NCBI GenBank assembly: GCA_964532285.1
Contig: CAZHHB010000001.1
Coordinates: 895 to 64,894 of the forward strand
Origin: an uncultured Candidatus Saccharibacteria bacterium
GTDB taxonomy: Bacteria; Patescibacteriota; Minisyncoccia; Phycocordibacterales; PALSA-1337
Direction of reading: 5' to 3'
Length of the DNA: 64,000 nucleotides
Under the pieces are notes generated by a model. It searched no databases. It had not been told where the DNA came from and worked only from the letters and a program-made list of their open reading frames with translations. Position numbers and translations under genes: made by a program. Of this stretch, positions 2,727 through 60,154 are shown piece by piece. The number at the start of each line of letters is the position of its first letter. Position 1 is the stretch's first letter.

Positions 2727-3296
2727 TTGCTCAAAAACCCCTTATATGCTATAAATATCTTTCGTAGTGTAATACATCGTCCATTGGCCATACGAGTCAA
2801 AATCAATCATCAAATCAAGGCTCCCGAGTTGAGAGTCGTAACTGCCGAAGGTGAAAACCTCGGTGTTATCACACTCACTGTTGCTTTGGCTGAGGCACAA
2901 AAGCGCGAGTTGGATCTCATAGAGATATCCCCCACCGCCGTACCGCCTGTAGCCAAGATAATGGATTATGGCAAGTATCTATACGACGAAAAGAAGAAGC
3001 AAAAGGTTGCCAAGTCCAAGACAGTGACAGCCGAATTGAAAATCGTTCAGGTCAAGATAGGTACAGGAGACCACGACCTAGAACTCAAAGCCAAGAATGT
3101 TTCTGAATGGCTAACCGAAGGAAACAGAGTCAAGATAGACCTATTCCTAGTCGGCCGTTCCAAATATATGGATTTGAACTTCCTCAAGGAACGCTTGGAG
3201 AGAATACTGAAACTAGTTACCGTGGAATATTCAGTAGCACAAGCTGTTACCAAAGGACCAAAAGGACTGACGATCATCATAGAGACGAAAAAATAA
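2727..3296 (+). CDS. infC: Translation initiation factor IF-3
   Basis: IF-3 N- and C-domain similarity (INHQIKAPELRVVTAEGENLGVIT ... ELKIVQVKIGTGDHDLELK). The ORF as drawn starts at TTG 2727, directly after the cls stop codon. The true start may instead be the in-frame ATA at 2790, since infC commonly uses rare start codons. The infC-rpmI-rplT order is canonical. Confidence 0.8.
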   Translation: MLKNPLYAINIFRSVIHRPLAIRVKINHQIKAPELRVVTAEGENLGVITLTVALAEAQKRELDLIEISPTAVPPVAKIMDYGKYLYDEKKKQKVAKSKTVTAELKIVQVKIGTGDHDLELKAKNVSEWLTEGNRVKIDLFLVGRSKYMDLNFLKERLERILKLVTVEYSVAQAVTKGPKGLTIIIETKK

Positions 3297-3343
3297 TCTT
3301 CCATAACATTCAATAAATAGAGAAAAATAAATTTATAAATACC

Positions 3344-3532
3344 ATGATAAAGACAAGCAAATCATACGCAAAACGCCTCAAAGTAACCCGTAACGGTAAG
3401 ATTTTGTCGCGCAAGCCAGGGCAAAACCATTTCAATGCCAAGGAACGCAGTCGTGTCAGTACCAACAAGCACCGCATGGTAACTGTCCACATGGACAACA
3501 AAGCCAAGAGTAGATTTTTAGTAAACCTATAA
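3344..3532 (+). CDS. rpmI: 50S ribosomal protein L35
   Basis: 62-aa basic protein (MIKTSKSYAKRLKVTRNGKI...) with an L35 signature. Located between infC and rplT. Confidence 0.85.
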   Translation: MIKTSKSYAKRLKVTRNGKILSRKPGQNHFNAKERSRVSTNKHRMVTVHMDNKAKSRFLVNL

Positions 3533-3541
3533 TTAACCAAC

Positions 3542-3892
3542 ATGACCCGAGTCAAAAAAGCCGTACACGCACTGAAGAACCGCCGAACCATCCTTCGCGC
3601 CGCAAAAGGATTCCGCTTCCGCCGTTCCAAGACCGAGCGCGCCGCAAATGATGCTTTGATGCATGCCGGTGCTTATGCCTTCGCTCATCGTCGCGACAAA
3701 AAGGGAGATTTCCGCCGTCTATGGAATGTCAAAATCAACGCCGCTCTCCGCCCTCTCGGCATGTCATATTCCAAGTTTATTGGAGACATCAAGAAGAAAG
3801 GCATAGAACTAGACCGCAAGACTCTAGCTCATCTAGCAGAATTCAAACCTGATACTTTCAAGAAGATTACGGATTTGGTAGCTATTAAATAA
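3542..3892 (+). CDS. rplT: 50S ribosomal protein L20
   Basis: 116 aa (MTRVKKAVHALKNRRTILRAAKGFRFRRSKTERAANDALMHAGAYAF...) with a classic L20 sequence. Confidence 0.9.
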   Translation: MTRVKKAVHALKNRRTILRAAKGFRFRRSKTERAANDALMHAGAYAFAHRRDKKGDFRRLWNVKINAALRPLGMSYSKFIGDIKKKGIELDRKTLAHLAEFKPDTFKKITDLVAIK

Positions 3893-4063
3893 GAAAGCAC
3901 AGCAAGATAATTTTCGGGTAACCTGCGGGACTCGCATCGTTAAATTGCAAGATTTTTATGCTCAGTGGGTCAAAGCCGTTATACAGAGCATAAAAATCTA
4001 GCAATTTATACTCAGCTCAGACAGGTCCTCGGCTACCCAAAAATTATCTTGCTGTGCTTTCTT
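3891..4063. repeat. Structured palindromic element E1. A 24-bp outer inverted repeat (AAGAAAGCACAGCAAGATAATTTT) encloses a 113-nt core (3922-4034) that contains its own 22-bp-stem hairpin. It exactly fills the gap between the convergent rplT and beta-CASP stop codons.
   Basis: Arms 3891-3914 and 4040-4063 are perfect reverse complements. The core is 100% identical to the reverse complement of 5748-5860. Confidence 0.85.
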
Positions 4064-4068
4064 GGCAA

Positions 4069-5433
4069 CTAAACCTCATACCCCTTATTCCTCTCCGGTA
4101 CTATCGCTTTCACACCCAACTCATCATTGATCCTCTGTGCCAGATGCATAGATGCTCCAGGTTCGCCCATCACCACAAATACTTTTTTCAATCTATCAGT
4201 ACCCGTACTCACAAATTCCAATAAATGATCTCCGTCCTTGTGTGCTGAATATCCATACAATGTTTCTATCCTTGCTCTGATCTTGATATGTTCCTTGTGA
4301 ATTCTAACCTTCTTTGCACCATCCGCCAGTTGCCTGCCAAGCGATCCCGCTGCTTGATAACCGACCAGTAGAATTGTGTTTTTCGAATCCGACAGATAAT
4401 GTTCTTCGTGACCCACGATTCTGCCGCCCACAGACATTCCAGAGCCAGCCAGGATAATCTTTGGTCCTTTTACATTTTCTATATCTCGCGATTCATTCGC
4501 ATTCATCGTATATTCCAAATGTGGAAATTTGAATATGTCGTCACCTCGTCCGATCTGTTCTCTCACCTTATCATTAAATAAATCTGTACTGCCACGATAC
4601 ACATCTGTAGCTCTTATAGCCATGGGAGAATCCACGAATACCGGTACCCTCGGTATTTTATTATACTCAACCATATTGTTGAGTTCATACAACAAGACCT
4701 GCGTACGATCTATAGCGAAAGCCGGTATCACCAATGTTCCACCGCGGGCAATCGTCTCCTTTATAACCTTTTCAAATTTGTTGGCGCGCCCTTCCCTGCT
4801 CTCGTGATTGCGATCACCATAGACGCTTTCCATTATCAAATAATCAACATCTTCAACATGCTCAGTATCTCGTAAAAGTGGCGCTGGAGAATTGCCCAAA
4901 TCGCCCGTAAATAAGACTTTCATTTCACCCGAGCGAATCTCAACCATCGCTGATCCCAATATGTGCCCAGCATCCTTGAAAAATATTGATATCCCCGGCG
5001 CAATCTCGGATTCTTCGTGATATTTGACTGTCTTCCAAAGTGGAAAGATGGCGGCTACTTCTTCTGCACCATACATCGGCTCTACCTCAACCTGTTTCGC
5101 TTCCATAGCCAATATCCTGACCGCATCTTCCAAAACTATCTGCGCCAACTCTCTAGTTTCTGGAGTTGAATATATCGGGCCCTTGTAACCATCTTTGACC
5201 AGTTTCGGAATACGGCCGACATGATCCAGGTGAGCGTGGGTGATGATGAGAGCATTTATGGAATTCAAATCATATTGAAATGAAGATTGGTTTTCTTCCA
5301 GAGCAAATCTCTCGCCCTGCACCATACCGCAATCTATGAGAATCTTCGCGCCCGATGGAGACTCAAACATAAAATTGGCACCCGTCACGGTACCTACTCC
5401 GGAAAAGAAAGTTATCTTGGGTTTGAGATCCAT
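4069..5433 (-). CDS. Beta-CASP metallo-beta-lactamase-fold ribonuclease (TTHA0252 / RNase J-like family)
   Basis: 454 aa. N-terminus ILIDCGMVQGERF...IITHAHLDHVGRIPKLVKDGYKGPIYSTPETRELAQIVLEDAV carries the HxHxDH motif. It also has beta-CASP motifs and a C-terminal SAHKDGDH segment. Very similar in pattern to the Thermus TTHA0252-type RNase. Confidence 0.8.
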   Translation of the reverse strand: MDLKPKITFFSGVGTVTGANFMFESPSGAKILIDCGMVQGERFALEENQSSFQYDLNSINALIITHAHLDHVGRIPKLVKDGYKGPIYSTPETRELAQIVLEDAVRILAMEAKQVEVEPMYGAEEVAAIFPLWKTVKYHEESEIAPGISIFFKDAGHILGSAMVEIRSGEMKVLFTGDLGNSPAPLLRDTEHVEDVDYLIMESVYGDRNHESREGRANKFEKVIKETIARGGTLVIPAFAIDRTQVLLYELNNMVEYNKIPRVPVFVDSPMAIRATDVYRGSTDLFNDKVREQIGRGDDIFKFPHLEYTMNANESRDIENVKGPKIILAGSGMSVGGRIVGHEEHYLSDSKNTILLVGYQAAGSLGRQLADGAKKVRIHKEHIKIRARIETLYGYSAHKDGDHLLEFVSTGTDRLKKVFVVMGEPGASMHLAQRINDELGVKAIVPERNKGYEV

Positions 5434-5725
5434 TGTCTTTTATTTAATTATACTGGAAACAACCATGAATAGAAAACGCCTCACTTTTAAGGCGAGGCGT
5501 TCACTATTGATTGCAAGAGTATAATACCTGTTAAAACAGGTGGAAGACCTCACCAATAACGCCAAGGCGCAATGGAATTTGAACAATGTTCATCGGTCTT
5601 CCGTAATATTTAATTTTGTAGCATTTTACTCCTGCAATCTACTACAATTTTATTCCTCTCAATTTTAAATACAAGTGCGTAGCGTAGTTCGGACACATCC
5701 TTGACATGTAAGGCAAATCAGACGA

Positions 5726-5884
5726 AACAGTAATGTGTGTTCGAGACAGCCGAGGACCTGTCTGAGCTGAGTATAAATTGCTAGATTTTTATGCTCTGTA
5801 TAACGGCTTTGACCCACTGAGCATAAAAATCTTGCAATTTAACGATGCGAGTCCCGCAGGCTGATGAGAGCACACATTACTGTT
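5726..5884. repeat. Structured palindromic element E2. It has the same 113-nt core as E1, inverted (5748-5860), enclosed by a different 17-bp outer inverted repeat (AACAGTAATGTGTGTTC / GAGCACACATTACTGTT, with one G-U-compatible mismatch). It sits immediately after the ndk stop codon.
   Basis: Direct comparison shows 113/113 identity to the reverse complement of E1. The outer arms differ in sequence from those of E1 but are again self-complementary. Confidence 0.85.
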
Positions 5885-5892
5885 TCACTTGA

Positions 5893-6498
5893 TTACTCCA
5901 AAATACCATCCAGATTCACATCATACAACATCGCTTCATTGATATTTCTGTAATTAAATATTTCTTCTGACCTGAACCAGTGCGTGATCTCATCTTCTGC
6001 CTCCTTCACCGTCCCTGAAGCATGAACCAGGTTGCGTACTGCCCTGCCGTCACCATCACTCATCCTATATGAATCAATCACGAAATCACCACGAATAGTA
6101 CCCATGAGTGAAGTTAGTGGTTCTGTACCACCCGTAATCTTGCGGACCAATTCTACAGCATGAGCGCCTTGCCAAACCATAGCGATCACTGGGCCACTCG
6201 TCATATATTTCATCAGATTTTTCAAGATGATAGCCGTAATCTTCAGGGGATCATCATGCGGCGGCTTTTGACCCTTATCCAAATAGCCCTTTATCGTCTT
6301 CATGCCAGTCTTCACCCTCCATTCTGGGTCAATAGTGTAATGTTTCTCTATCATCTCTGCCGTCGGTATCATCATCTTGATGCCGATGAGTTTCAAACCC
6401 ACACGTTCATATCTCTGTATTATCTCTCCTATAAGTGAACGCTGAATGCCGTCTGGTTTGATGATGACGAGAGTTCTTTCGTTTTTTGGATGATTCAT
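5893..6498 (-). CDS. ndk: Nucleoside diphosphate kinase (long form)
   Basis: ERTLVIIKPDGIQRSLIGEIIQRYE at the N-terminus, plus an NLVHASG active-site-region variant. 201 aa. Confidence 0.75.
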   Translation of the reverse strand: MNHPKNERTLVIIKPDGIQRSLIGEIIQRYERVGLKLIGIKMMIPTAEMIEKHYTIDPEWRVKTGMKTIKGYLDKGQKPPHDDPLKITAIILKNLMKYMTSGPVIAMVWQGAHAVELVRKITGGTEPLTSLMGTIRGDFVIDSYRMSDGDGRAVRNLVHASGTVKEAEDEITHWFRSEEIFNYRNINEAMLYDVNLDGILE

Positions 6499-6571
6499 AT
6501 TTTGTTCAATTTTTTATAAATAAAAGTCTCCTTATATTATCACAAAATTTCTACTTTATAACTTTATAACT

Positions 6572-7339
6572 TTATTGTGTGAGTATCTCCGCCCCGCCCT
6601 TCGTAATCACCACCGTGTGTTCGAAATGGGCACTCGGTTTGCCGTCGCGAGTACGATATGTATAACCATCCTTATCTAATTTTATTTCTTTCGTTCCCAG
6701 ATTGAACATCGGCTCAATAGCGATAACCATACCAGGACGGAGCAATTCACCCCCACCAGCTTCGCCGAAATTTGGCACAAAAGGATCTTCGTGTACAGCA
6801 TAACCTACCCCGTGACCAGCCAAATCTTCAACTATTCCATATCCATGGGGTATCGCTATTCTGGATATAACATTACCTATATCGCCAGTCTTTTTACCAC
6901 CCTTAGCCGCCCTGATCCCAGCATTGAGAGCTTCTTTCGTCACGTCAAGAAGTTTCCTTAATTCAATAGAAATCTCTCCTACAGGAACAGTTATAGCCGC
7001 GTCGGTGATGAGTTCTCTATGAGTAAGTCCCAGATCTATGCTCACAATATCTCCTTCTTTCAGAATCTTCTCATCTTCGTTGGGAATACCGTGGACGATT
7101 TCATCATTTACAGAAACGCAGATAGCCGCTGGATAAGGCCTCTTGGCTCCTCCAGGCGTATAGCCCAAAAAGGCTGACTTATCTCCACCCCCTGCTATCA
7201 GTTCTCGTGCGCGATTTTCCAATTCTATAGCATAAAGTCCTGGACGAACCATATTCGCCAACTCTTTCAAGATAAAGGCGTGGCGCTTGCCACCCTCTCG
7301 GAGAATCGCTATGTCTTCCTTTGTCTTTATGGCTATCAT
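6572..7339 (-). CDS. map: Methionine aminopeptidase type I
   Basis: 255 aa. Pita-bread fold motifs: DIVSIDLG, HGIGxxxHE-like (AGHGVGYAVHEDP), and EPM (IAIEPMF). Confidence 0.9.
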   Translation of the reverse strand: MIAIKTKEDIAILREGGKRHAFILKELANMVRPGLYAIELENRARELIAGGGDKSAFLGYTPGGAKRPYPAAICVSVNDEIVHGIPNEDEKILKEGDIVSIDLGLTHRELITDAAITVPVGEISIELRKLLDVTKEALNAGIRAAKGGKKTGDIGNVISRIAIPHGYGIVEDLAGHGVGYAVHEDPFVPNFGEAGGGELLRPGMVIAIEPMFNLGTKEIKLDKDGYTYRTRDGKPSAHFEHTVVITKGGAEILTQ

Positions 7340-7942: not shown

Positions 7943-7968
7943 TCAAACATTATAAGGTAGAAAAGTAA

Positions 7969-8083
7969 AAGAAGGAAGGAGTACTTAGTTTTGAGGACAC
8001 TGCGAGCGCGACTGGCGCGAGCACTAGGAATTTTCCAGCAGGAAAATATCCGCGTCCTCAAAACTAAGTACTCCTTCCTTCTT
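7969..8083. repeat. Structured palindromic element E3. Perfect 28-bp inverted repeat (GAAGGAAGGAGTACTTAGTTTTGAGGAC, 7971-7998 / 8054-8081) around a 55-nt GC-rich insert. It ends 5 nt from the secY stop and lies 27 nt upstream of the adk start.
   Basis: Arms are exact reverse complements. Flanking A-runs and T-runs extend the symmetry to about 35 bp. Confidence 0.8.
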
Positions 8084-8085
8084 TT

Positions 8086-9360
8086 TTAGTATTCCCTCAT
8101 CGCCACTTGTGCGTCAACTTTCTTGAGTAGATCCAAAGCCACAGAAACTACGATGAGAAGTGCTGTACCACCTATAGCTAGACTTTGATTGGAGGTAAAT
8201 GCCTGCATTGCCAGAGGAAGCACCGCGATAATACCTAGGAATAAAGCACCCACCAATGTTATACGAGTGACGATATTGCCGATATGAGCTTGCGTATGTT
8301 CACCTGGACGAACACCTGGGATGAAAGCGCCAGAACGCTGGAGATTTTCGGAGATCATCTTTGGATCGAAAGTGATGGCTGTATAGAAATAAGTAAATAT
8401 AACCACCAAGACAAAGTATGCTGTGCCGTATACCCATTGATTATTGAAGAATGTCGTAAAGGATGAAGCTACACTAGCTATGGTTGGATAATTTGTGAGA
8501 TGTGATAGGAAATTGGAAATTATCTGAGGAAATAGAAGAATGGATAGAGCAAAGATTATTGGGATAACACCTGCTTGATTCAAGCGCAAAGGCAGATATG
8601 TCGAAGCTCCTCCGTAGACTTTGTTGCCACGAACTTGCTTGGCATAAGTCACAGGGACAGAACGCTCGGCTTCGGTCACATATACCACGCCCGCGATAAC
8701 TGCTAGAGCTACTACCAAAGCGCCGATGTACAAAGGTATGTTTTCTGGACTGTAACCAGCGATGAGCTGTGTGACTTTCGTAGGGAGACTAGAGACTATA
8801 CCGGCGAAGATGATGAGTGACACCCCATTTCCTATGCCAAATTCTGAGATGAGTTCACCGACCCACATGAGGAGGATTGAACCCGCAGTAACCACAATGA
8901 CTGCCGTTGTAAAATCAAAAGTGGAAAGACTAGGCAAGACATTTTGAGATTGGAGTAGTATCAAAAAACCTATAGCTTGAATCACAGCCAACGGCGCACC
9001 TATCAAACGAGAATATTGCGAGAGCTTCATGCGGCCAGCATCGCCTTCTTCGTGCATCAGATTCTTCCACTTTGGGAACATCATAGTCAAAAGCTGAATG
9101 ATGATGGAGGCTGTGATAAAGGGACCGACACCAAGCATCACGATAGATAGATTGGACAAGCCACCGCCAGAGAAAATATTCAAAAATCCAAAAAATTGAC
9201 TGGAGGAGAGGAGTTTCGCCAAACTTGCAGCATCAACTCCTGGTATAGGGATAGCAGCCAAGAGGCGGAAAACAACTAATGCAAGAACAGTGAAACCAAG
9301 CCTCTTTCTGAGGATTGGATCCCTAAGCGCCAGTTGTATTTTGGCCCACAGATTTTGCAT
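8086..9360 (-). CDS. secY: Preprotein translocase subunit SecY
   Basis: 424 aa, 10 TM helices, SecY signature segments. Confidence 0.92.
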   Translation of the reverse strand: MQNLWAKIQLALRDPILRKRLGFTVLALVVFRLLAAIPIPGVDAASLAKLLSSSQFFGFLNIFSGGGLSNLSIVMLGVGPFITASIIIQLLTMMFPKWKNLMHEEGDAGRMKLSQYSRLIGAPLAVIQAIGFLILLQSQNVLPSLSTFDFTTAVIVVTAGSILLMWVGELISEFGIGNGVSLIIFAGIVSSLPTKVTQLIAGYSPENIPLYIGALVVALAVIAGVVYVTEAERSVPVTYAKQVRGNKVYGGASTYLPLRLNQAGVIPIIFALSILLFPQIISNFLSHLTNYPTIASVASSFTTFFNNQWVYGTAYFVLVVIFTYFYTAITFDPKMISENLQRSGAFIPGVRPGEHTQAHIGNIVTRITLVGALFLGIIAVLPLAMQAFTSNQSLAIGGTALLIVVSVALDLLKKVDAQVAMREY

Positions 9361-12662: not shown

Positions 12663-13811
12663 TTATTTATCCTCGAATAGATTTACATATTCACGATGAA
12701 TATAAAGCGACGGTTTTACGCCTTCGCCCTTTCGAAGCAACTTGAGGACACCTACTTCTATCAGTTTATCAATCAATTTTATAGTCCCCTGTCTAGTATA
12801 TCCCGTCCATTCTTCAATATGTGCCGTTGATGCGACAGGACTCTTGTATAGATTCTGTAACACACGAGCTGCTGTATCTGTGGGGTTAGTAGCTATTCTA
12901 GAAATTTTTTCGAGATCTTTATCACGAAGTTTTGTGATCTTCTTGGAGACCTCAATGGCTTGCTGTGCGGTATCAATAACCGCATCTAGGAAGAAATCTA
13001 CCCATGGCAAAATATCCCCGATATGATATCCGGCAAGTCTCTGATAATATATTTTCTGGTGTCTTTTAAAATACGATGAAAGAAACAGGGTCGGAAGCTC
13101 CAAGAATTTATAGTGAATAAGATAAAATGTAATCAGTAGACGACCAGTACGTCCATTACCATCAAGAAACGGGTGCACTGTCTCAAATTGAGCATGGAGA
13201 AGTCCCGCGTCAATAATCGGATGAATATATGGTGAGTGAATAAATCCCTCGACATCGTTTAGTGCTTCTGGCAATTCTTCATATGTTGGCAGGACAAAGC
13301 TTGCATTACTAGGAGCTGTTCCTCCAATATAATTCTGGCTCTTTCTAAATTCGCCAGGATCTGAAAAATGCGTAGCACGAGCCCCCTTCATAAGTTCTTT
13401 ATGGAGTTCACGAATAAAGCGTAAAGAAAAAGGAAAATTATCCTCTTTTAATCTCTTTAATCCATAATGTAACGCCGCAATATAGTGTGAGATATCATCC
13501 GCATCAGTATCACTTGGGTTTGCGGGGTCAGCAACATATTCAAAGGCTTCAACCATTGTTGCTTTTGTACCTTCGATCTGTGAAGAGGATGTTGCATCTT
13601 TTGTAATATATGAGGATATAAAATAATCTACATCCGGCAATAAAAGTGTGATGCCAGAAAGTTTCCCCAAGAGAAATTGAGCTTCATTTGCCTTTTGAAG
13701 CATCTTCTTATCCCCTTCAATCAAAGTCCTTATTTTTGCAGGAAAAGGAAGCAGTGACAGATATTCATAACCGTTTACATGTTTCCTTGTTATTCCTATT
13801 TGTATTTTCAT
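12663..13811 (-). CDS. Fic family protein (AMPylation/filamentation domain)
   Basis: Canonical Fic motif HPFLDGNGRTGRLL. 382 aa with an N-terminal helical region and a C-terminal winged-helix-like tail. Inserted in the spc cluster. Confidence 0.85.
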   Translation of the reverse strand: MKIQIGITRKHVNGYEYLSLLPFPAKIRTLIEGDKKMLQKANEAQFLLGKLSGITLLLPDVDYFISSYITKDATSSSQIEGTKATMVEAFEYVADPANPSDTDADDISHYIAALHYGLKRLKEDNFPFSLRFIRELHKELMKGARATHFSDPGEFRKSQNYIGGTAPSNASFVLPTYEELPEALNDVEGFIHSPYIHPIIDAGLLHAQFETVHPFLDGNGRTGRLLITFYLIHYKFLELPTLFLSSYFKRHQKIYYQRLAGYHIGDILPWVDFFLDAVIDTAQQAIEVSKKITKLRDKDLEKISRIATNPTDTAARVLQNLYKSPVASTAHIEEWTGYTRQGTIKLIDKLIEVGVLKLLRKGEGVKPSLYIHREYVNLFEDK

Positions 13812-14144
13812 GCATCTGTGGTGTTTATACTATTTTCATAGTTTAAACCATTATATACTTTTAGTTTAAGGTAGTCAACTAGCTTAAACTAAGCCTAAAA
13901 CGGCTTATTTATCTTTAATCCCTCGCAAAACTCAGATATTTTGAGCTGCAACACAACCTCATTTTCTTTAATTCATTGAGTTTCTCCGATACTACCAGAT
14001 GTTGACTACGCCCCACAATTCTGATTCTAGAGCCTTTTTTCTTCTTCAGACGTGTAGCACTCCCGTTCTGGTAATGATTCCATCATATCCTAAAGCTTTC
14101 TGATTTATAGGATGAACTGATGACCGCTAGAAAGCAAAATTTCT

Positions 14145-15248
14145 CTATTCTTCTAACTTGACGAATTTGCCATCTTTGAAAATTTTTACATCACTTATCA
14201 GCGTTCTTGATCCCGTCTCGTCGAAAGTTATTTCGCCCGATATCCCTTTGAGGGAGAAGTTCTTGCTTTCAAGTACACTCTTCCATTCTGATTTATTCTT
14301 TTTTGCAAGCACTCTCGAAATAATCTGGATCGAATCGTAACCATAGACACCGAGGAAATTTGGTTCTATTCCATAAAGCTGTTTGTATCGCTCAACATAG
14401 TTTTTTTCGGTCGTGTCGGCAATCATAGTTGAGATGCAATTATTGAACACAGTTTTATCGGCAACCTTTTTCAGAAAATCTCCGATGGTAAGTTCAATAT
14501 TTCCGTCGCATATCATCTGTGGTCTCTTGGATCCGCCCTGTTTGGCAATTTCATTAATAAGTTTACTTCCCTGTTCAATCGGCAAAAATACCGTATATGC
14601 ACTCACTCCTTCATGGAGCATTTTTGTTACCTCTGTCCTCATATCTGAATTCGGAGCAATTGGGACTTCAATGTAGTCTTTATTACCTAATCCTGCTATA
14701 AACTGTGCCTTGTTTGGTGCCGCCAACGCCCAATCGTTTGCATATACAATCGCTATTTTGCCATACCTTCCTGAGACAGCCTTACCTAGATCTTTGAATA
14801 AAGCGGTAGCCCATGGAATTACTTCGAAGATATTATCTTTCTCGATCGAAGCTTCATTTCCAATCGCTAACATCAATTCATCAGTCTTATTTATTATAGG
14901 CTTAATTGCCTCAAGCGTAGGACTGTCGAGTCCGATAACAATATCAACATCATCAAATGTCTGCAGTTTATTATATGCGGACAAGACTTTTGCGGTATCA
15001 AATCCTCCATCCTCATATATAATCTCAATGTTCTTGTCTTCCAAATCATTGAAGCTCATCTGTATTGAGTTCTTTACAGCCTCTCCAAATGCGGCTCCAT
15101 ATTCTCCAGAAAGAGGTAATATTACCCCAACCCTGATCTTCCCATTTGATTCAGCCTCATTTCTATCGCCCTTAACGGCAAGACCAATTACAACAACCAC
15201 AACCAAGACAGCCACTGTCAACCAAAGTATTTTTGTGTTTTTATTCAT
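14145..15248 (-). CDS. Membrane-anchored periplasmic-binding-protein type I (Leu/Ile/Val-binding-protein-like ABC substrate-binding protein)
   Basis: N-terminal TM/signal anchor. PBP1 fold pattern (GVILPLSG...IVIG...YANDWA...GYDS). No cognate permease nearby. Confidence 0.6.
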   Translation of the reverse strand: MNKNTKILWLTVAVLVVVVVIGLAVKGDRNEAESNGKIRVGVILPLSGEYGAAFGEAVKNSIQMSFNDLEDKNIEIIYEDGGFDTAKVLSAYNKLQTFDDVDIVIGLDSPTLEAIKPIINKTDELMLAIGNEASIEKDNIFEVIPWATALFKDLGKAVSGRYGKIAIVYANDWALAAPNKAQFIAGLGNKDYIEVPIAPNSDMRTEVTKMLHEGVSAYTVFLPIEQGSKLINEIAKQGGSKRPQMICDGNIELTIGDFLKKVADKTVFNNCISTMIADTTEKNYVERYKQLYGIEPNFLGVYGYDSIQIISRVLAKKNKSEWKSVLESKNFSLKGISGEITFDETGSRTLISDVKIFKDGKFVKLEE

Positions 15249-15371
15249 ATACTTTTACTTTTATGTTTAATGCCGTCATTATAGAACATAATTGTAATAA
15301 TATGAAAAAAATGTTTATTTACTTCCTCTTTTAAATTACCCCCTTATTTACAAGACTTATTTCGCATTTAC

Positions 15372-15400
15372 TTGACTAATTTTTCGACAAAATATAGTAT
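15372..15400 (+). promoter_or_regulatory. Promoter TTGACT-N17-TAGTAT giving a leaderless transcript for the TrmB-like gene
   Basis: The -10 ends 7 nt before the ATG at 15408. The upstream TTG used by the ORF track is itself the -35 hexamer. Confidence 0.45.
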
Positions 15401-15407
15401 CATTAAA

Positions 15408-16235
15408 ATGAATATTACCAAGAAGTCCTCTGTTATCATCGGACTGCGAAAGAACGAAGTGGCTGTTTTGAAAGCGTTATCATCAGATGAATTGGTGATA
15501 TCTGACATAGCAATCTCAACACGGATTCCTCGCACTTCCCTTTATTATATGTTACCGAAATTGGAGAAGCGTGGTTTTGTGAAAAGAGTTAAGCGGAATA
15601 AGAAAGTCTTATGGAAAAAAGCAGATGATAAAGACATATATGCTATCCACGAAAGTGTACTGAGAGGATTCAAAAGCAAGGAAAAAGACAGCGTAACCAA
15701 AGAAGTCTCGGACTCAACACAGGTCACTTTTCATTATGGAAACAAAAATGTATTAGCTGTTTTTGATGAAATATCCGATATGTTACCTGAGAGTCGGGTG
15801 TATGGTATCCAACCAGAATTATCTATCGTGGGAGGAGTTGAAAGAAATCCACTTGATGCGATTATTAATTTCAATAAAAAGATTAAATCCAAAAAGATCA
15901 TCGTGGAGGGTATAATTCACGAAAAAGGAACCGACTCGATGGCACAAACTCTCTCGAAAGAAGAAAAAATAAAATTACTAGATAGTTTTAATGATCGCTC
16001 GGCAGATACCACCAAGTTACCTGAAAAGATACTCGAGAAGACAAAAGCGGAAATTTATCTCTATGAAGACAAGGTGGCAATCGTCAACTGGTATGAGGAA
16101 TTCGCAGTGATCATTAAAAATAAAGATGTGTTCGAATTGATAAAAGAAATGTTTAACTCAACCAAGTATTTGTCGGAAAGATATGACCAAAATAGAAAGA
16201 TCTCAATGAGACTTAGGGATTTCGAAGGTAAATAG
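15408..16235 (+). CDS. TrmB-like winged-helix transcriptional regulator with a C-terminal domain of unknown function
   Basis: N-terminal wHTH pattern (LKALSSDELVISDIAISTRIPRTSLYYMLPKLEKRGFVKRV). Start taken as ATG 15408 (MNITKK). Confidence 0.5.
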   Translation: MNITKKSSVIIGLRKNEVAVLKALSSDELVISDIAISTRIPRTSLYYMLPKLEKRGFVKRVKRNKKVLWKKADDKDIYAIHESVLRGFKSKEKDSVTKEVSDSTQVTFHYGNKNVLAVFDEISDMLPESRVYGIQPELSIVGGVERNPLDAIINFNKKIKSKKIIVEGIIHEKGTDSMAQTLSKEEKIKLLDSFNDRSADTTKLPEKILEKTKAEIYLYEDKVAIVNWYEEFAVIIKNKDVFELIKEMFNSTKYLSERYDQNRKISMRLRDFEGK

Positions 16236-20055: not shown

Positions 20056-20538
20056 ATGAAACCACTGACTAGTTCCACACTTTTTCATCGTGGCATGACT
20101 CTCGTAGAAATAATATCTGTAATAGCTATTTTTATTATAATCTTCGGCATCGGTTCATACGTATTCATAAACGCACGCAGATCAAGTGAACTCAGGGGAT
20201 TAACAGATACCATTGCATTGACACTTGAACAAGCCAAATCGAACGCTCTTATAGGTAAGGGTGGCTTAGATTTCGGCCTTAGGTTTGCTGCCGATTCATA
20301 TACTTATTTCAGTGGCAGTTCATATGTCCCATCCGATACTTCAAATCAGGTTCATGGTTTAAGTACAGGCTATCAAATAGCAAACACCTTCGCTTCTACC
20401 AGTGGAGTAGTGGTGTTCAGACACTTAACGGGTCTGCCTCAGGCTACTGGCACGGTCACTATCACTGCCCTTTCAGATCCATCAGATCCACAGACCATCA
20501 TCATAGGGAGCCAAGGAGAAATCACTGTGATAAAATAA
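20056..20538 (+). CDS. Type IV pilin-like protein / pseudopilin (GspH/FimT-like)
   Basis: Prepilin N-terminus: cleavage/methylation-type motif G-MTLVEI followed by a hydrophobic helix (RGMTLVEIISVIAIFIII). Confidence 0.7.
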   Translation: MKPLTSSTLFHRGMTLVEIISVIAIFIIIFGIGSYVFINARRSSELRGLTDTIALTLEQAKSNALIGKGGLDFGLRFAADSYTYFSGSSYVPSDTSNQVHGLSTGYQIANTFASTSGVVVFRHLTGLPQATGTVTITALSDPSDPQTIIIGSQGEITVIK

Positions 20539-20545
20539 ATAATGA

Positions 20546-21028
20546 ATGAATAAGAATACCGGCTTTAGTATTATAGAAATAGTTATTGCTGCGGCAATAA
20601 TCGTCACACTCGTGACAGCGGCGGCTGGAGCCTGGCAGTTGTATTTCAAAGTTTCCAGAACAAGTAACCAGAATACTCAAGCAGCCCTATTGACTGGAGA
20701 AGCCGCGGAGGCACTTAATCTCCTTAGGGATTCTGGTTGGACCGCAAATATATCCCCTCTTTCCCTGGGTACCACATACTACTTGTATTGGAATGGTGAT
20801 ACATATGCAACTTCGACCACCCCAATTCTCATAGATAATTCCCCATATAGTATAAGTTTTGTATTTTCTGAGATCAGGCGCGACACCACAAGCGACAACA
20901 TCGTCAGTTCCGGTGGAGCCGTCGACATTCACACACGTAGCGTGGTCATCTCCATAATGTCGTCCTCCAGTCCCCCGATGACAGTAATGCAATCTTCACT
21001 TTTACTTCATGATGTATACAAAAACTAA
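20546..21028 (+). CDS. Type IV pilin-like protein / pseudopilin
   Basis: N-terminus NTGFSIIEIVIAAAIIV (G-F-x-x-x-E prepilin signature). Confidence 0.7.
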   Translation: MNKNTGFSIIEIVIAAAIIVTLVTAAAGAWQLYFKVSRTSNQNTQAALLTGEAAEALNLLRDSGWTANISPLSLGTTYYLYWNGDTYATSTTPILIDNSPYSISFVFSEIRRDTTSDNIVSSGGAVDIHTRSVVISIMSSSSPPMTVMQSSLLLHDVYKN

Positions 21029-21530
21029 ACAAAAAGGCTTCACATTGGTTGAGACTCTCATATATATTGCAGGGGCTGTAATCGTCATAGGTATGATAGT
21101 AAGCATGCTCTATTACGCATATTCATGGTATGGGAGAGTATCAGAGCCCTCTCGTGTGGATCAGATAGGTTCTGCTTTGGTTAATAAACTTCTAGGAGAC
21201 ATTCGCGGTGGTCAGAGTATTGATCTCCCACAGAGTTCATTCGCCACGAACAATGGTACGCTAACCATAGACACCTTAACACCTTCACTGACAAATGTAA
21301 TCAAACATTATGCGTTACAAAATGGGCGTATCATATACCAAGAAAACAGCGGAGACATACAATACCTAACCCCTAGCGATATTACTGTATCGCAATTCTA
21401 CTTGAATCAAGCAACCACAACAGTTTCAAGTGCCATAAGGTTCTCTGTAAATATTGATTACCTAACCAAAACAGGCACCAGTACGAATACATATTCTGGT
21501 ATGGCTATCCTGAGAAATTCATATCAATAA
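21009..21530 (+). CDS. Type IV pilin-like protein / pseudopilin
   Basis: N-terminus KGFTLVETLIYIAGAVIVIG, a classic class III signal. Confidence 0.75.
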   Translation: MMYTKTKQKGFTLVETLIYIAGAVIVIGMIVSMLYYAYSWYGRVSEPSRVDQIGSALVNKLLGDIRGGQSIDLPQSSFATNNGTLTIDTLTPSLTNVIKHYALQNGRIIYQENSGDIQYLTPSDITVSQFYLNQATTTVSSAIRFSVNIDYLTKTGTSTNTYSGMAILRNSYQ

Positions 21531-21531
21531 A

Positions 21532-22821
21532 ATGATGTACAAACATAAACAAGGTGGATATATAGTTATTTTGAATACGCTTCTCTTTATTTCCATAATG
21601 GCGGTTATGCTTGTTGCTCTTTCTAACATAGTAGTCATTCGTTATTCATCTTCCCAAGGATATTCTTCCTCTAAACAATCATATCTTCTGGCTCATAGCG
21701 CGGCAGAAGAAGCTTTGTATCGTTTGAAAAATGGCTTGGATATACCCGCAAGCGGTTCCATCACCCTCTCGTCAGGTTCGGCCACAATAAATGTAACCGA
21801 TACACCCAACGGCAAAGAGATCACCGTCAATAGTGATTCTGGAGGATACAATCACAATATAAAGATTGGCCTGAGTCTCGGGACCGGGATCTCCTTCCAT
21901 TACGGCATCCAATCTGGCATGGGGGGCTTTGTTCTGCAGAATAGTTCGTCAGTAACCGGGAACATATATTCTGGAGGAACAGTCGTGGGTTCCGGCAATT
22001 ATATATATGGCGATGTTATCTCATCTGGATCAGGCGGACTTGTACACGGTATACATGCGACGGGGACAGTCTATGCTCATACAATCGGCAGTGTTTCGCG
22101 AGCTACTACTATAGACAAAGATGCTTATTATACAACCAAGGTCGGAACCGTCAGTGTTGGTGGTACACAATATTCAGGAAGCGATGATCAACCTGCTGTA
22201 GATTTGCCAATTTCCGACGAGCAGATTGCTTTATGGGAAGATGAGGCAGATAATTTTATAAGCAGTGGGTGTTCAGAAGGTATGTACAAGATAACATCAG
22301 ATATTCCTCTCGGCCCAATCAAAATACCTTGTAATCTAGAGATTAGTGGAAGCCCAACTATCACAATAGCTGGTCCGGTATGGGTAACTGGAAATATAAC
22401 TACAAAAAATTCTCCTACAATCAAAATATCCTCAACACTCGGCAATCAAAATGTCGCCATAATTGCAGACAATCCGGCCAACAGAAGTGGTAGTGGCGTT
22501 GTAGAGATAGCCAATAGTACAAACTTCCAAAATTCAGGAGTGGCTGGCTCTTTCGTCTTTATGATCTCGCAAAACAATAGTGCAGAGATGGGTGGAAGTG
22601 TGGAAGCAATACAAATAGACAACAGTGCGACTGCCCTAGTCGTCTATGCACCACACGGTCTTATAGCAATAGCTAATACCGCCGCCCTAAAAGAAGCCAC
22701 GGCTTACAGAATCACCTTGAAAAATTCTGCCAATGTAACCTATGATAAGGGTTTGGCCAACGCAATCTTCAAGGCTGGACCTAGTGGTGGGTACAGTTTA
22801 CTTAATTGGTCGGAAATCTAA
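21532..22821 (+). CDS. Putative minor pilin / pilus tip-associated protein (PilX/GspK-like), Gly/Ser-rich beta-rich body
   Basis: N-terminal hydrophobic helix (GGYIVILNTLLFISIMAVMLVAL) without Glu5. Last gene of the pilin operon. 429 aa. Confidence 0.45.
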   Translation: MMYKHKQGGYIVILNTLLFISIMAVMLVALSNIVVIRYSSSQGYSSSKQSYLLAHSAAEEALYRLKNGLDIPASGSITLSSGSATINVTDTPNGKEITVNSDSGGYNHNIKIGLSLGTGISFHYGIQSGMGGFVLQNSSSVTGNIYSGGTVVGSGNYIYGDVISSGSGGLVHGIHATGTVYAHTIGSVSRATTIDKDAYYTTKVGTVSVGGTQYSGSDDQPAVDLPISDEQIALWEDEADNFISSGCSEGMYKITSDIPLGPIKIPCNLEISGSPTITIAGPVWVTGNITTKNSPTIKISSTLGNQNVAIIADNPANRSGSGVVEIANSTNFQNSGVAGSFVFMISQNNSAEMGGSVEAIQIDNSATALVVYAPHGLIAIANTAALKEATAYRITLKNSANVTYDKGLANAIFKAGPSGGYSLLNWSEI

Positions 22822-28264: not shown

Positions 28265-28313
28265 ACTTGGAACATTATAACAAACTCCATATATTTAGAA
28301 GCCCACACCTATC

Positions 28314-28351
28314 CAAGATCCGATCTAGGTATACCGAGATCCGATCTTGGA
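28314..28351. repeat. Tandem pair of the CCAAGATCCGATCTTGG-type palindrome, followed by GATAAT
   Basis: CCAAGATCCGATCTAGG (28314-28330) and CCGAGATCCGATCTTGG (28335-28351). The same palindrome occurs at 44965-44981, 45996-46013 and 46018-46034. Confidence 0.7.
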
Positions 28352-28359
28352 TAATTTTT

Positions 28360-28415
28360 ACTCATACCTCAGTGCCTCTATCGGACTCTTCTTGGACGCT
28401 TGGCTGGCAGGATAA
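28360..28415. repeat. 56-bp perfect direct-repeat copy of the 3' end (last 18 codons plus stop) of the MacB-like permease gene. It is the left boundary of the purD cassette.
   Basis: Identical to 29981-30036, which encodes ...GGYPASQASKKSPIEALRYE-stop of the permease. Confidence 0.9.
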
Positions 28416-28526: not shown

Positions 28527-29834
28527 TTACTGTTGACCAGAAATATGCTTGATTGCCTTATCGCCAATATCGAGTCGCATATGTTTACCGTTGAAATGAA
28601 TCTCGTGAGCTGCCTTATAGGCTCTTTCCTTGGCAACCAACAAATTTTCACCCCACGCAGTGACACCGAGTACTCGTCCTCCGTTAGTTCCAAACATATT
28701 TCCCATCATTTTCGTACCGGCATGGAAGACTTTGACATTCTCCATTTTGGCAACACGGTCAAGACCCCAGATCATCTGATCATTGCTTTGCCCCTTAGGA
28801 TACCCCTTTGAGGAAAGCGCTACGCAGACAGAAGCCTCCGCACCTTTCCGCCAATCCAATCTAACATGTTCGAAGTCGCTAGCCGACGAACAGGCGTGGA
28901 GTATCTCGAACAGATCAGATTCAAGTCTAACCATGTATGCCTGGGCTTCAGGATCACCGAAACGAGCGTTGAATTCCAAAACCTTCAAGCCATCGTCTGT
29001 AAGCATGATGCCAGGATAGAGCATGCCACTATAATCAATACCTTCAGCCACACAGCCATCATGCCAACGAGCAATGATTTCTTCATTGATTTTCCCAAGC
29101 AGTTCACTAGTGATAAATGATGTGGGACAACATACACCCATGCCACCAGTCATCGGACCACGATCATTATCAAGTAAGTGCTTGTGATCTTGCGAAGTAG
29201 GAAATGGGTACACATTCCTCTTGTTGCAAAGTAGATGTAACGAGATTTCGGTACCAACAAGTCTTTCTTGGATAAGGATAGGCAAATTCGGATGTTCTTT
29301 GAATTTCGCATCAATAATTTCAAAAGCGTATTCTGGAAGATCAGAAATGTTCACACCTTTTCCTCTACACAGGCCATCAGATTTTATAACACAATACCCA
29401 CGGAGCTTACCTGCATACAACTTTGCTTGTTCTGGATCCGTGAAGATCTCCCCACGAGGTGACGGGATGTTCCAACGCTTCATGAAGTTATGCGAATAAA
29501 CTTTCGAAGACTCAATCTTGGCAGCTTTTTGCGTAGGAGCAAAGATCGCAAACTTATTATGGATGAACATGTCTGCAATACCCATAGCAAGCGGTTCATC
29601 AGGACCAACGATCGTAAGAGTCGGCTTATTTGAATTAGCAAAACCCAAGAGCCTAGTGCAATCAGTGGCCTTAATACTCACACACTGAACAAGCGTTCCA
29701 TTCCTCAACCTTTCTTGTGCGATACCTGGATTTCCAGGGGCACACCACAATTCCGTAATATCTGGCGAGCGTGCCAAGGACCATACAAGGGCATGTTCCC
29801 TACCACCTCCACCAACAACAAGGACAGTACTCAT
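28527..29834 (-). CDS. purD: Phosphoribosylamine--glycine ligase (GAR synthetase)
   Basis: [18 protein letters not shown]-terminus. ATP-grasp architecture. 435 aa. Confidence 0.88.
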
Positions 29835-29979: not shown

Positions 29980-31215
29980 CTACTCATACCTCAGTGCCTC
30001 TATCGGACTCTTCTTGGACGCTTGGCTGGCAGGATAGCCACCAAAGATGAGGCCTATGAGGGCCGATACGGAGAAACCGAGCAGTGCCCCGCCCCAAGGG
30101 AAGATGAACTGCCAATTGACGCCTAACCCCTTGGAAAGTCCTAGAGCAATAACAAATGACAACAATGATCCCAAGACAATACCGATGATACCACCCATGG
30201 CTGTAAGCAAGACAGCCTCAAGCAAGAACTGACGTAAAATATCCCTATCAGTTGCACCTAGAGCTTTGCGCAAGCCGATCTCACGCGTGCGCTCTGTGAC
30301 CGCCACAAGCATTATGTTCATGATCCCAACACCACCGACAAAAAGAGCGATCGATGCCATTGCCACGAGGAAATAAGTAAGCGTATCTGTAATGGTACCA
30401 AGACGATTCGCCAAGTCCTGCTGGGTTTGAACAGTAAAGTCATCCTTGGTTGGATCCGTAATACCGTGTGTCTCGCGTAAAGTTATTTTGATATCATCAG
30501 CCGTAACAGCTACATCCTGATCAGTTTCAGCCTGGATTATAAAACGACTGAAGTATTTCTGACCTAAAATATAATCTTGCGCTGTTGTATAAGGAACGAG
30601 CACCATATCATCAAAATTAAATAATGAACCGCCGCCAGTCTCCGGCAACACACCTATCACTTTGAAATTTCTACCTTTTATTTTGACTTTCTGTCCCAAG
30701 GCTTCATCACCATCAAAGAGATGTGTTTTCACTTTTGAACCTAGAATTGCCACATCACCTCGAGATAAAACATCATCACTAGTGAAGAATTCACCCTTAG
30801 GGTGTAGATCAAACACTTCAGCCATAAGTTGTGTCGCTCCAAAGATAGAGACCTGGTAGGTATTGGAATCATGAACAGCAGAACCTGCCCCGAAGACGGT
30901 CGGCATGATGGTCTTCAATTTCGGAACATTCGCCTTATTGCGTAAAGCGACAATATCTTTTTCTTTTAATGAATCACTGAACAAAGAAGTCACATCTGAT
31001 GGTCCAGTTGGTTCCCTGCCAGGAATAACCGCTATCATATTTGTCCCGAGGCCTTGTACTTGCCCGAGTATCAAAGCTTGTGCACCTGCACCCAGAGAGA
31101 CCACGAGCATGATAGCCGTAATACCTATCACAATACCGAGAATAGTAAGGGAGGTTCTTGACCTATTCGTAGTCAATCCAGTCAATGCGGTTTTTAAGAG
31201 GTGTTTCCAGGTCAT
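29980..31215 (-). CDS. ABC transporter permease, MacB/FtsX family
   Basis: 411 aa. Large periplasmic domain between TM1 and TM2, plus a C-terminal FtsX 4-TM bundle ending in ...PIEALRYE. Confidence 0.85.
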   Translation of the reverse strand: MTWKHLLKTALTGLTTNRSRTSLTILGIVIGITAIMLVVSLGAGAQALILGQVQGLGTNMIAVIPGREPTGPSDVTSLFSDSLKEKDIVALRNKANVPKLKTIMPTVFGAGSAVHDSNTYQVSIFGATQLMAEVFDLHPKGEFFTSDDVLSRGDVAILGSKVKTHLFDGDEALGQKVKIKGRNFKVIGVLPETGGGSLFNFDDMVLVPYTTAQDYILGQKYFSRFIIQAETDQDVAVTADDIKITLRETHGITDPTKDDFTVQTQQDLANRLGTITDTLTYFLVAMASIALFVGGVGIMNIMLVAVTERTREIGLRKALGATDRDILRQFLLEAVLLTAMGGIIGIVLGSLLSFVIALGLSKGLGVNWQFIFPWGGALLGFSVSALIGLIFGGYPASQASKKSPIEALRYE

Positions 31216-42381: not shown

Positions 42382-42758
42382 AATCCTTTGGTAATTGGTT
42401 ATTAGTTGTTAGTTGTTGGTAAAAACCAATAACTAACAACTAATAACTATTTGGGGCAATTCTGAATTATTCACCGCTTTCGACTTGAGTTGTGTCTGAG
42501 CGATTACTCATTCTTGCCTGATAAACGAACACTTATCCCCCGTAGAGGACAGTGAGGGTACCTTATCACAGAGGGCTCCTTTACGCAAATCTGACTAAAT
42601 TAGGTATTTCAAACAATAAAAAGAGCGCCCGATCGAGGAAATGATCGTGACGCCCTGTTCGAGCACCCAAAGAGCGATTTTATAATTAAATGCTCGGGAA
42701 CACCTGCACCCGTAGTTATATTAAATCTATAAGGATATTGCTGTCAATATCTGAGAGA

Positions 42759-44719: not shown

Positions 44720-44962
44720 ATGGCAAAAGTCTGTGCAATAACAAAAAGAGGTTCAGTTATGGGAGGTCGTTACTCCAACCGTACTCGTGCAACACAATTC
44801 AATCCTTGTGGGACTATTCGCCGTTACCCAAATCTCCAGAAAAAGAGTATCTATGTTCCTGAATTAAAGAAATCTATTATTTTGAATATCTCTACTCGCG
44901 CTCTCAGAACCATACAGAAAAATGGCGCTTACAAGACTCTGAAGAAAGCTGGGGTTATTTAA
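44720..44962 (+). CDS. rpmB: 50S ribosomal protein L28
   Basis: MAKVCAITKRGSVMGGRYSNRTRATQFNPCG... is an L28 signature. The track ORF over-extends upstream. Confidence 0.8.
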   Translation: MAKVCAITKRGSVMGGRYSNRTRATQFNPCGTIRRYPNLQKKSIYVPELKKSIILNISTRALRTIQKNGAYKTLKKAGVI

Positions 44963-44986
44963 TACCGAGATCCGATCTTGGTAATA

Positions 44987-45949: not shown

Positions 45950-45988
45950 GATAAATTCCTGATAAAAAAGAGATAAATTCCTGATAAA
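45950..45988. repeat. Four direct GATAAA repeats at exact 11-bp phasing (GATAAAttcctGATAAAaaagaGATAAAttcctGATAAA), upstream of the MBL-domain gene
   Basis: GATAAA at 45950, 45961, 45972 and 45983. The same arrangement occurs at 48124-48162. Confidence 0.8.
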
Positions 45989-45995
45989 ATATAAA

Positions 45996-46042
45996 CCCAA
46001 GATCCGATCTTGGTATACCTAGATCCGATCTTGGGGTATAAT
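45996..46042. promoter_or_regulatory. Two CCAAGATCCGATCTTGG-type palindromes immediately followed by TATAAT (46037-46042). This is a putative operator plus promoter for the leaderless SOD-like gene.
   Basis: Palindromes at 45996-46013 and 46018-46034. The -10 ends 8 nt before the ATG at 46051. Confidence 0.5.
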
Positions 46043-46050
46043 TTACCCAT

Positions 46051-60026: not shown

Positions 60027-60027
60027 A

Positions 60028-60154
60028 GCAAGGCAAAATACTTCCTTCTCGGGACACGGGGAAAACTCTGCAGAGTTTTCCCCTAGTTTCGCTCCTCGGC
60101 TTGCTAGCCTCGGAGCTGCAAATGTCCCGCGAAAGAAGTATTTTGCCTTGCTTC
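60028..60154. repeat. Structured palindromic element E4. Outer ~30-bp inverted repeat (AGCAAGGCAAAATACTTCCTTCTCGGGACA / TGTCCCGCGAAAGAAGTATTTTGCCTTGCT) enclosing a perfect 26-nt palindrome GGGGAAAACTCTGCAGAGTTTTCCCC and a second small hairpin. It fills the gap between the convergent nusA and C39-like stop codons.
   Basis: Arms match at 28 of 30 positions. The central 26-mer is its own reverse complement. Confidence 0.8.

Follow-up and report, generated by a model that had tools for sequence, protein, structure and literature searches.

Introduction

What kind of element is a 113-nt sequence that stands in two identical but opposite copies on either side of a ribonuclease gene, each copy enclosed by a self-complementary stem of its own? 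The question is raised by a 64,000-nt stretch of DNA (the window), part of the 176-kb metagenomic contig k141_1315824 (European Nucleotide Archive, ENA, ERZ27247837) from Candidatus Paceibacterota (candidate phyla radiation, CPR; Patescibacteria), in which the two copies, here named E1 and E2, bracket a gene for a beta-CASP/metallo-beta-lactamase (MBL) ribonuclease. A preliminary description of the stretch had noticed the repeat and its stems, and had offered a transcribed element of the 3'-untranslated region (3'-UTR), an elaborate terminator, or a substrate for inversion of the ribonuclease gene. The best reading in our analysis, a mobile or nested palindromic repeat, is absent from that description: we consider E1 and E2, with a probability of about one half, to represent the same member, present twice, of a lineage-specific family of small palindromic repeats that are non-coding, form rods and are comparable to REPIN, ERIC and Correia elements. 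It is favored because of the mosaic pattern of conservation, the gain and loss of copies between genomes, the sharing of genomic slots with unrelated palindromes, and the lack of a match to any known RNA family.

Geometry and folding of the two copies

The genes around the element are infC-rpmI-rplT on the plus strand, followed on the minus strand by the beta-CASP gene (4069–5433) and by ndk, map, adk and secY (coordinates are collected in Table 1). A repeat search, with the identity re-checked by script, bears out the inverted repeat that had been described: the core at 3922–4034 is the exact reverse complement of 5748–5860 (113/113), at a spacing of 1713 nt, and 22-mers of the core occur within the 64 kb in E1 and E2 only, shuffled sequences giving an expectation of 0 matches. 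In both copies the core contains an inner stem with 26-nt arms of 92% complementarity (in E1, 3941–3966 with 3983–4008); the internal 22-bp stem reported earlier is therein real, but its pairing is not perfect, one A.A mismatch leaving 21/22.

Each core is enclosed in turn by an outer stem. That of E1 (3891–3923 with 4031–4063) is ungapped over 33 nt at 94% and consists, in order, of 24 perfect pairs, a G.T, 5 pairs, a second G.T and 2 pairs, the two G.T being the sole positions that are not Watson-Crick; the 24-bp outer repeat of the preliminary description is thus free of mismatches and forms part of longer arms, and the 22-nt heart of the arm, GAAAGCACAGCAAGATAATTTT, has an exact match on both strands. 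The outer stem of E2 (5724–5742 with 5868–5886) measures 19 nt with one mismatch, where 17 bp had been given; the stem stands, but the G.U compatibility claimed for its mismatch holds on the plus strand, antisense to ndk, only, the ndk-sense strand having C.A. As to placement, the E1 outer arm starts inside the rplT stop codon (3890–3892) and the element ends 5 nt short of the convergent beta-CASP stop (4069–4071), which it abuts as had been said, so that E1 and its arms take up 173 of the 176 nt of the rplT/beta-CASP spacer; the outer arm of E2 reaches the ndk stop codon (5893–5895). Both loci fold as long, stable rods, in line with the hairpins proposed earlier, at -84.7 kcal/mol (z = -12.4) for E1 and -77.1 kcal/mol (z = -8.2) for E2.

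The repeat is not an assembly artefact, a reading excluded because independent assemblies agree and contigs break at the repeat boundaries. A contig of a second ENA assembly (L004) spans rplT, E1 and the beta-CASP gene and is base-for-base identical, and the Logan contigs from run ERR3094292 stop within the repeat, L003 30 nt into it (3951) and L005 29 nt into it (5832). A further Logan contig of 1773 nt, which carries a 439-aa form of the beta-CASP protein and was compared by length only, has the length of the inter-core segment plus 30 nt of each core.

Family members in a related genome

The nearest homologues of the beta-CASP protein are only 72–76% identical, and the comparison therefore lacks a near-isogenic empty site. 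A JGI contig of a related member of Paceibacterota (L021; JGI 3300009868), whose L20 protein is 91% identical, carries two homologous elements, L021a (12973–13094) and L021b (8917–9028). Between E1 and L021a, two boxes are conserved (24/28 and 30/36, or 83–86%), the 60 central columns between them are not (17/60, 28%), and the flanks agree at 3/16 positions; L021b is more diverged, at 15/28 and 15/36 in the boxes. At the base of the central hairpin, E1 and L021a differ by two compensatory changes, T-A to C-G and T-A to G-C, and each of the four copies is wrapped in a long inverted repeat unrelated in sequence to the others, the arms measuring 33, 19–36, 36 and 22 nt. The unit accordingly has a locus-specific outer stem, inside it two conserved boxes whose imperfect pairing leaves bulges and a tandem G.A loop, and at its tip a variable apical hairpin; E1, E2, L021a and L021b all have the conserved boxes, the variable apical hairpin and the enclosing inverted repeat.

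To judge from this comparison, E1 and E2 belong to a conserved structured family and are not a chance duplicate, because L021 has two homologous copies whose stems and hairpins are unrelated in sequence yet paired. The preliminary description had held that pairing is kept despite sequence change, which is true of E1 and E2 and also of the outer stems and central hairpins of both copies in L021; the fortuitous recent duplication that it had allowed for is countered by the box conservation and stem pairing found there.

A consensus fold of the four full-length elements failed, as the unrelated outer stems are unalignable, and the arms were analyzed copy by copy instead. A covariance model was trained on the three distinct cores (the E2 core being the E1 core); it gives 105–131 bits for the four copies, by construction, since these were the training copies. 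It found no further member in about 430 kb of related loci and, with filters off, no weak members in the window or in L021, and the loci fetched through L20 homologues (L026–L039) held none either. Searched against JGI metagenome contigs, a 22-mer of the inner arm matched by chance only, in three related GC-rich contigs, where the match lies upstream of an open reading frame (ORF) resembling mntH (manganese transporter); three patterns run against viral contigs gave nothing or chance matches in GC-rich DNA, BLASTN against plasmids and phages gave no match, and six-frame peptides of the core, compared with a protein collection to catch ORFs miscalled across other copies, gave nothing.

Strand asymmetry and a possible structured RNA

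The two strands of the element are not equivalent. With the R strand defined from the core alone, as 5'-AGCCGAGGAC...CCGCAGG-3', folding with RNA parameters gives -88.9 kcal/mol for R and -84.7 for its complement in E1, -76.0 and -75.1 in E2, -91.3 and -70.2 in L021a, and -95.2 and -78.7 in L021b; R is the more stable strand in 4/4 copies, and the sign is the same with DNA parameters. In the four independent outer stems, transition mismatches on the R strand are G.U in 10 cases and A.C in 2, both of the latter in the frayed end of E2. An R-strand internal loop with tandem G.A, read off the sequence, is conserved as GC-UGA-GU / AC-GAU-GC in E1 and E2, GA/GAA in L021a and GAU/GA in L021b. These numbers are small (a 4/4 sign test; 10:2), yet they agree with one another and do not depend on the definition of the strand. 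Replication-strand mutation bias was rejected as the source of the G.U excess, E1 and E2 favoring opposite absolute strands at a distance of 1.7 kb.

At E1 the R strand is sense to the beta-CASP gene, and at L021b it has the sense of PLD and infC; it is antisense to rplT and ndk here and to a penicillin-binding-protein gene at L021a. The earlier proposal that both copies share the sense of their upstream gene, as 3'-UTR elements would, does not survive this: the favored strand is antisense to rplT and ndk, and it is the other strand that has the sense of the upstream genes.

The principal alternative to a mobile palindromic repeat is a structured RNA motif that acts in cis: the internal-loop module, conserved and with tandem G.A and 3-nt bulges, would lie between two helices that are free to vary and would serve as a protein-binding structure or as one for RNase III-type processing or termination, E1 then being a structure in the 3'-UTR of the beta-CASP mRNA. 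Such a motif would explain the mosaic conservation, with loops and boxes kept and the closing and apical helices variable but paired; the G.U bias and the tandem G.A loop on one strand in all copies; the very stable folds (z of -8 to -12); and the sense orientation of R at E1 and L021b. It sits poorly with E2 and L021a, at which the favored strand is antisense to every neighbor and no promoter for it was found, with the gain and loss of copies between genomes, and with the presence of unrelated repeats in the same slots. There is also no Rfam match, and the terminator consensus is unmatched while canonical terminators serve this locus and follow rplT in relatives. No RNase III gene is present among the window ORFs scanned, a weak point in that they cover part of the genome only. 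We regard a cis-acting RNA as possible, though doubtful.

Slots in relatives and the neighboring small RNA gene

Between E2 and the beta-CASP gene lies a conserved small RNA gene, predicted to be transcribed from its own promoter, with a 13-bp closing stem, three inner hairpins, a canonical intrinsic terminator (5494–5477) and a conserved upstream box, TGTGTCCGAACTAC. It is found in eight Paceibacterota loci, always upstream of a DUF2238 gene, the beta-CASP gene or both, and 17/37 of its pairs show compensatory changes; it matched no Rfam family, including yjdF, the known motif associated with DUF2238. Independently of the repeats, this gene makes a clean candidate for a new RNA family.

Its promoter region marks a slot that E2 and L021a share, each element lying some 20–30 nt upstream of the conserved promoter-proximal box, behind ndk in one genome and behind the penicillin-binding-protein gene in the other; apart from this slot, the remaining copies of the family occupy different loci in the two genomes. 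The equivalent slot is short and empty in L006, L022 and L029, without a long hairpin, and in L007 it is filled by an unrelated palindromic repeat, X1, with a second copy, X2, beyond the beta-CASP gene. These two repeats (L007 9077–9263 and 11384–11556) are of about 180 nt and bracket the beta-CASP region in direct orientation, and the X repeat carries at its ends a REP-like hairpin, GTCATTCCCGCGAAAGCGGGAATCCAG, that recurs in two genomes (L007 7619–7656; L021 7203–7271). The slot of E1 is likewise bare in relatives, the rplT/beta-CASP spacer measuring 1 nt in L006 and 8 nt in L034, with no long hairpin; L026 and L029 have ordinary terminators after rplT.

The same comparison bears on whether E1 and E2 might be two old members, placed independently, whose cores, being close to each other and inverted, were homogenized through gene conversion and without a recent insertion. 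The conserved boxes, as possible anchors, coincide exactly with the two ends of the identical tract, no more than 1.7 kb separates the copies, and the E2 slot looks ancient, since it is common to L021a. The boxes are only 28–36 nt, however, which is short for efficient homologous exchange, the near absence of the rplT/beta-CASP spacer in two relatives makes the whole of E1 a gain, and conversion would account for the identity alone and not for the nature of the element. We hold this account to be unlikely.

Perfect inverted repeats of 113 bp that are 1.7 kb apart are long enough for RecA-dependent exchange, and the repeats could in principle form a DNA switch that inverts the beta-CASP/small RNA segment, as the preliminary description had suggested for the ribonuclease gene. 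We found no evidence of it: the segment has the same orientation in two ENA assemblies built with k=141, which exceeds the repeat length, and this orientation is the ancestral one, as in L006, L007, L029 and L035. Exchange within the cores would mismatch, and so destroy, both outer stems, which are intact, and as the segment has its own promoters and terminator, a flip would change little; a switch is barely credible. Replicative intramolecular transposition with inversion was also rejected, the gene order and orientation being those of the relatives.

Comparison with known element classes

An Rfam 15 scan of window positions 3000–7000 at E <= 10 returned only generic microRNA and snoRNA hairpin hits, of 20–25 bits against thresholds of 44–85. 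The elaborate terminator of the preliminary description finds no support, since neither copy fits the consensus of an intrinsic terminator (a short G+C-rich stem with a loop of 3–8 nt and a U run after it): no call was made at E1 or E2, yet the canonical terminator at 5494–5477 was called, and the outer stems of E1 and E2 are of 19–33 bp, enclose 107 nt and have U-rich tracts partly inside the stems. An independent family of regulatory small RNA genes, for instance 6S-like rods of about 175 nt with a central bubble, would suit the size and the rod shape with its internal loop region; there is, however, no 6S or other Rfam match at E <= 10, the elements have no promoter or terminator of their own, and perfect closing stems of 24–32 bp are uncharacteristic of 6S RNA, as is the occurrence of several copies with different stems. 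Taken together with the artefact excluded above, this explanation is very unlikely.

Closest in kind, judged by sequence and predicted fold, E1 and E2 seem most like a REPIN or ERIC element, set apart by the locus-specific enclosing stems and the swapped apical module. REPINs are doublets of REP sequences that form hairpins and are mobilized by RAYT transposases (Bertels & Rainey 2011, PMC3116915; PMC3733652). Typical of the class are palindromes of 20–40 nt with a GTAG or CGTC head, set in inverted doublets, a cognate RAYT (a Y1 HUH transposase) and copies by the tens to hundreds. The likeness lies in a non-coding imperfect palindrome of about 100 nt with two inverted half-sites round a spacer, extragenic, repeated in the genome and persistent in the lineage, with hairpin pairing maintained; the elements here differ in that the REP/REPIN head GTAG/CGTC is absent from their ends (inverted half-sites with 3-nt indels are present), no RAYT is seen, 2 copies are counted in the 64 kb, each copy is wrapped in an inverted repeat specific to its locus, and the two genomes have different apical parts.

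The ERIC/IRU elements of enterobacteria and the Correia elements of Neisseria are imperfect palindromes of 100–155 nt in transcribed intergenic regions by stop codons, which fold into long RNA hairpins that RNases can cleave and occur in variants with internal insertions; the Correia type is bounded by terminal inverted repeats of 26 bp and has a TA duplication. E1 and E2 resemble both in type of palindrome and in placement at stop codons, but are unrelated in sequence, show no TA duplication and have no clear counterpart of the Correia terminal repeats, and we know of no locus-specific outer stems described for either class. RNase III processing hairpins and the intervening sequences of rRNA are also long, near-perfect duplexes with internal loops, situated at helix tips or between cistrons. 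The elements, as predicted rods, share that form, and differ in that their favored strand is antisense at 2/4 copies.

Selfish hairpin repeats of organelle genomes, for example the hairpin elements of sponge mitochondria (PMC2800124) and the palindromes of Volvox (PMC2670323), are alike in invading intergenic DNA and in forming nested, Russian-doll palindromes, to which the double hairpins inside long stems elsewhere in the window (elements A and B, below) may be compared; hosts and sequences are different. TIGR-Tas systems, found among others in CPR bacteria, combine variable palindromic stems with conserved short motifs, in tandem arrays of units beside a tas gene with a Nop domain, with box C/D motifs and 9-nt spacers (PMC12045711). 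The variable stems and conserved motifs recur here, but the copies of our family are single units dispersed behind housekeeping genes, the neighbors being rplT, the beta-CASP gene and ndk, and neither the 30 ORFs scanned nor the genes around the element, judged by their precomputed Pfam families, include a tas gene; a TIGR stem array was rejected. The same holds for an integron attC site, which has an R''-L''...L'-R' layout with a GTTRRRY core site and stands in arrays next to intI (GTTRRRY is absent from the ends of the elements, whose copies are scattered behind housekeeping genes with no integrase in the vicinity), for a retron msr-msd (no reverse transcriptase among the neighboring genes) and for a hammerhead, whose motif CUGAUGAG beside E2 lies in the private flank of that copy and is absent from E1, its GAAAC being part of the outer stem. 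Our literature search found no description of such elements in CPR bacteria, nor anything on CPR non-coding content.

A model for the element and its outer stems

Under the preferred reading, a mobile or nested palindromic repeat, E1 would be a gain that filled the rplT/beta-CASP spacer, and E2 would occupy a slot beside the small RNA promoter that is used also in a related genome. The 113/113 identity would reflect recent copying, whatever the enzyme, either by transposition into the tip of another hairpin or by gene conversion anchored in the conserved boxes. The constrained form may be the folded single R strand, as RNA or as single-stranded DNA, and any effect on the host or on neighboring genes would probably come from the rod of about 80 bp in transcripts, as a barrier at 3' ends, a substrate for a double-strand-specific RNase or a platform for protein binding.

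Several observations weigh against this. Only four copies, in two genomes, were found, and no transposase is present among the 30 window ORFs scanned (64 kb of the genome). The core ends, CCGAGGAC and CCTGCGGGAC (reverse complement), match only loosely as terminal inverted repeats, CCG(C)AGG recurring as a direct and not an inverted repeat, and no target-site duplication was found, the bases next to the core being AA/AC in E1, AG/GT in E2 and CG/CG in L021a, with inverted flanks; membership among DDE-type miniature inverted-repeat transposable elements or Correia elements fails for want of this duplication, the terminal repeats being weak. An IS200/IS605-derived element, which would have sub-terminal hairpins at both ends and insert 3' of a fixed target of 4–5 nt, was rejected as well, as there is a single central hairpin and the left flanks (GTAA, TCAG, TTCG) differ, with no shared tetranucleotide. 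The empty slots of relatives contain no pre-existing long hairpin, which leaves insertion into a hairpin tip without direct support; conserved boxes around a center at random level, at 91% L20 identity, fit a functional RNA motif equally; and the asymmetry is statistically weak.

As to the outer stems, it may be that they are neither pre-existing hairpins nor free-standing terminators, and are made or kept together with the core on one strand, an idea that we consider rather unlikely. They could arise as the element is installed, its adjacent flank being copied by fold-back (snap-back), or by continual template-switch growth of the palindrome outward until stop codons are met. Such joint origin fits the enclosure of 4/4 cores, an arm asymmetry that tracks the orientation of the core and not that of the gene, the lack of hairpins in empty slots and the reach of the arms to stop codons.

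Other features of the locus and the window

Table 1. Features of the beta-CASP locus and of the small RNA loci in related contigs
Feature	Position	Strand	Remarks
E1 outer stem, left arm (locus-specific)	3891..3921	.	pairs with 4031-4063
E1 core, 113 nt	3922..4034	-	R strand = minus: beta-CASP-sense, rplT-antisense; covariance model 130.9 bits
E1 conserved box CCTGCGGGACTCGCATCGTTAAATTGCA (3' box on R strand)	3922..3949	.	24/28 identical to L021a
E1 variable apical hairpin	3950..3998	.	upper part of 26-nt arms, 16-nt loop; 28% identity to L021a = random level
E1 conserved box TAGCAATTTATACTCAGCTCAGACAGGTCCTCGGCT (5' box on R strand)	3999..4034	.	30/36 identical to L021a
E1 outer stem, right arm	4035..4063	.	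ends 5 nt before beta-CASP stop
beta-CASP / MBL-fold ribonuclease gene	4069..5433	-	between E1 and E2; Pfam Lactamase_B, Beta-Casp, RMMBL
Conserved small RNA gene	5470..5641 (locus 5470-5698)	-	between E2 and beta-CASP
Small RNA promoter (predicted)	-35 TTGTAT 5669-5674; -10 TAAAAT 5647-5652	-	16 nt between
E2 outer stem, left arm (locus-specific)	5716..5747	.	strong part 5724-5742
E2 core, exact reverse complement of E1 core	5748..5860	+	R strand = plus: antisense to ndk and small RNA; covariance model 123.3 bits
E2 outer stem, right arm	5861..5894	.	strong part 5868-5886; reaches ndk stop
Small RNA loci in relatives	L006 9424-9556; L007 9349-9481; L021 12715-12837; L022 3248-3354; L029 6600-6731; L034 4067-4198; L035 3244-3375		

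Upstream of the beta-CASP gene, a TATAAT at 5447–5452 stands 14 nt from the start codon (5431–5433) and is invariant in six genomes, and this conservation suggests that the beta-CASP mRNA may be nearly leaderless.

Long intergenic palindromes are frequent in these genomes, each lineage having its own set. In the window, element A (7967–8085) and element B (60020–60159) are unique long hairpins whose arms of 32–37 nt (32/32 bp and 37 nt) lie flush against stop codons; inside each, two small G+C-rich hairpins give a three-way junction. They resemble each other and also L026 11751–11902 in a relative, and in element B two convergent genes have stop codons that base-pair with one another. Between the outer arms of E1 and B, 24/28 positions agree (z 5.2), which is no more than suggestive once about 100 comparisons are allowed for. 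Upstream of rpsL, a 28-bp hairpin (42393–42452; loop of 4 nt) is a long stem without an inserted module.

Elsewhere, the tmRNA gene (632–992) adjoins smpB, and the ribosomal-protein gene cluster is broken up at 12663–16235 and 20056–22821 by unrelated genes, namely Fic/DOC, a periplasmic binding protein, a TrmB-like regulator and pilin-like genes with N-terminal methylation motifs. The purD gene (28527–29834) is bracketed by a 56-nt perfect direct repeat (28359–28414 and 29981–30036) and looks inserted or duplicated, because the repeat is the 3' end of a MacB/FtsX permease gene (29980–31215), comprising its final 18 codons and stop. A palindrome at 28310–28353, adjacent to this repeat, has relatives at 44944–44981 and 45987–46044.

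Implications

The genomes of CPR/Patescibacteria are small and tightly packed, and this Paceibacterota lineage keeps a family of elaborate rods of about 175 nt, with a conserved internal-loop module, set against stop codons and promoters; in the same slots, related genomes have repeat families of their own. Mobile elements, if that is what they are, would help to show how minimal genomes come to retain selfish palindromes and what does the copying; if the outer stems are made together with the core, this would be a type of bacterial repeat that duplicates its target in inverted, locus-specific form or, read as RNA, a conserved tandem-G.A module on a programmable long duplex. If they act as RNA, the family would point to an unstudied level of control, at 3' ends or by antisense, around an RNase gene. 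Under either reading, the strand asymmetry and the locus-specific closing stems yield predictions that can be tested.

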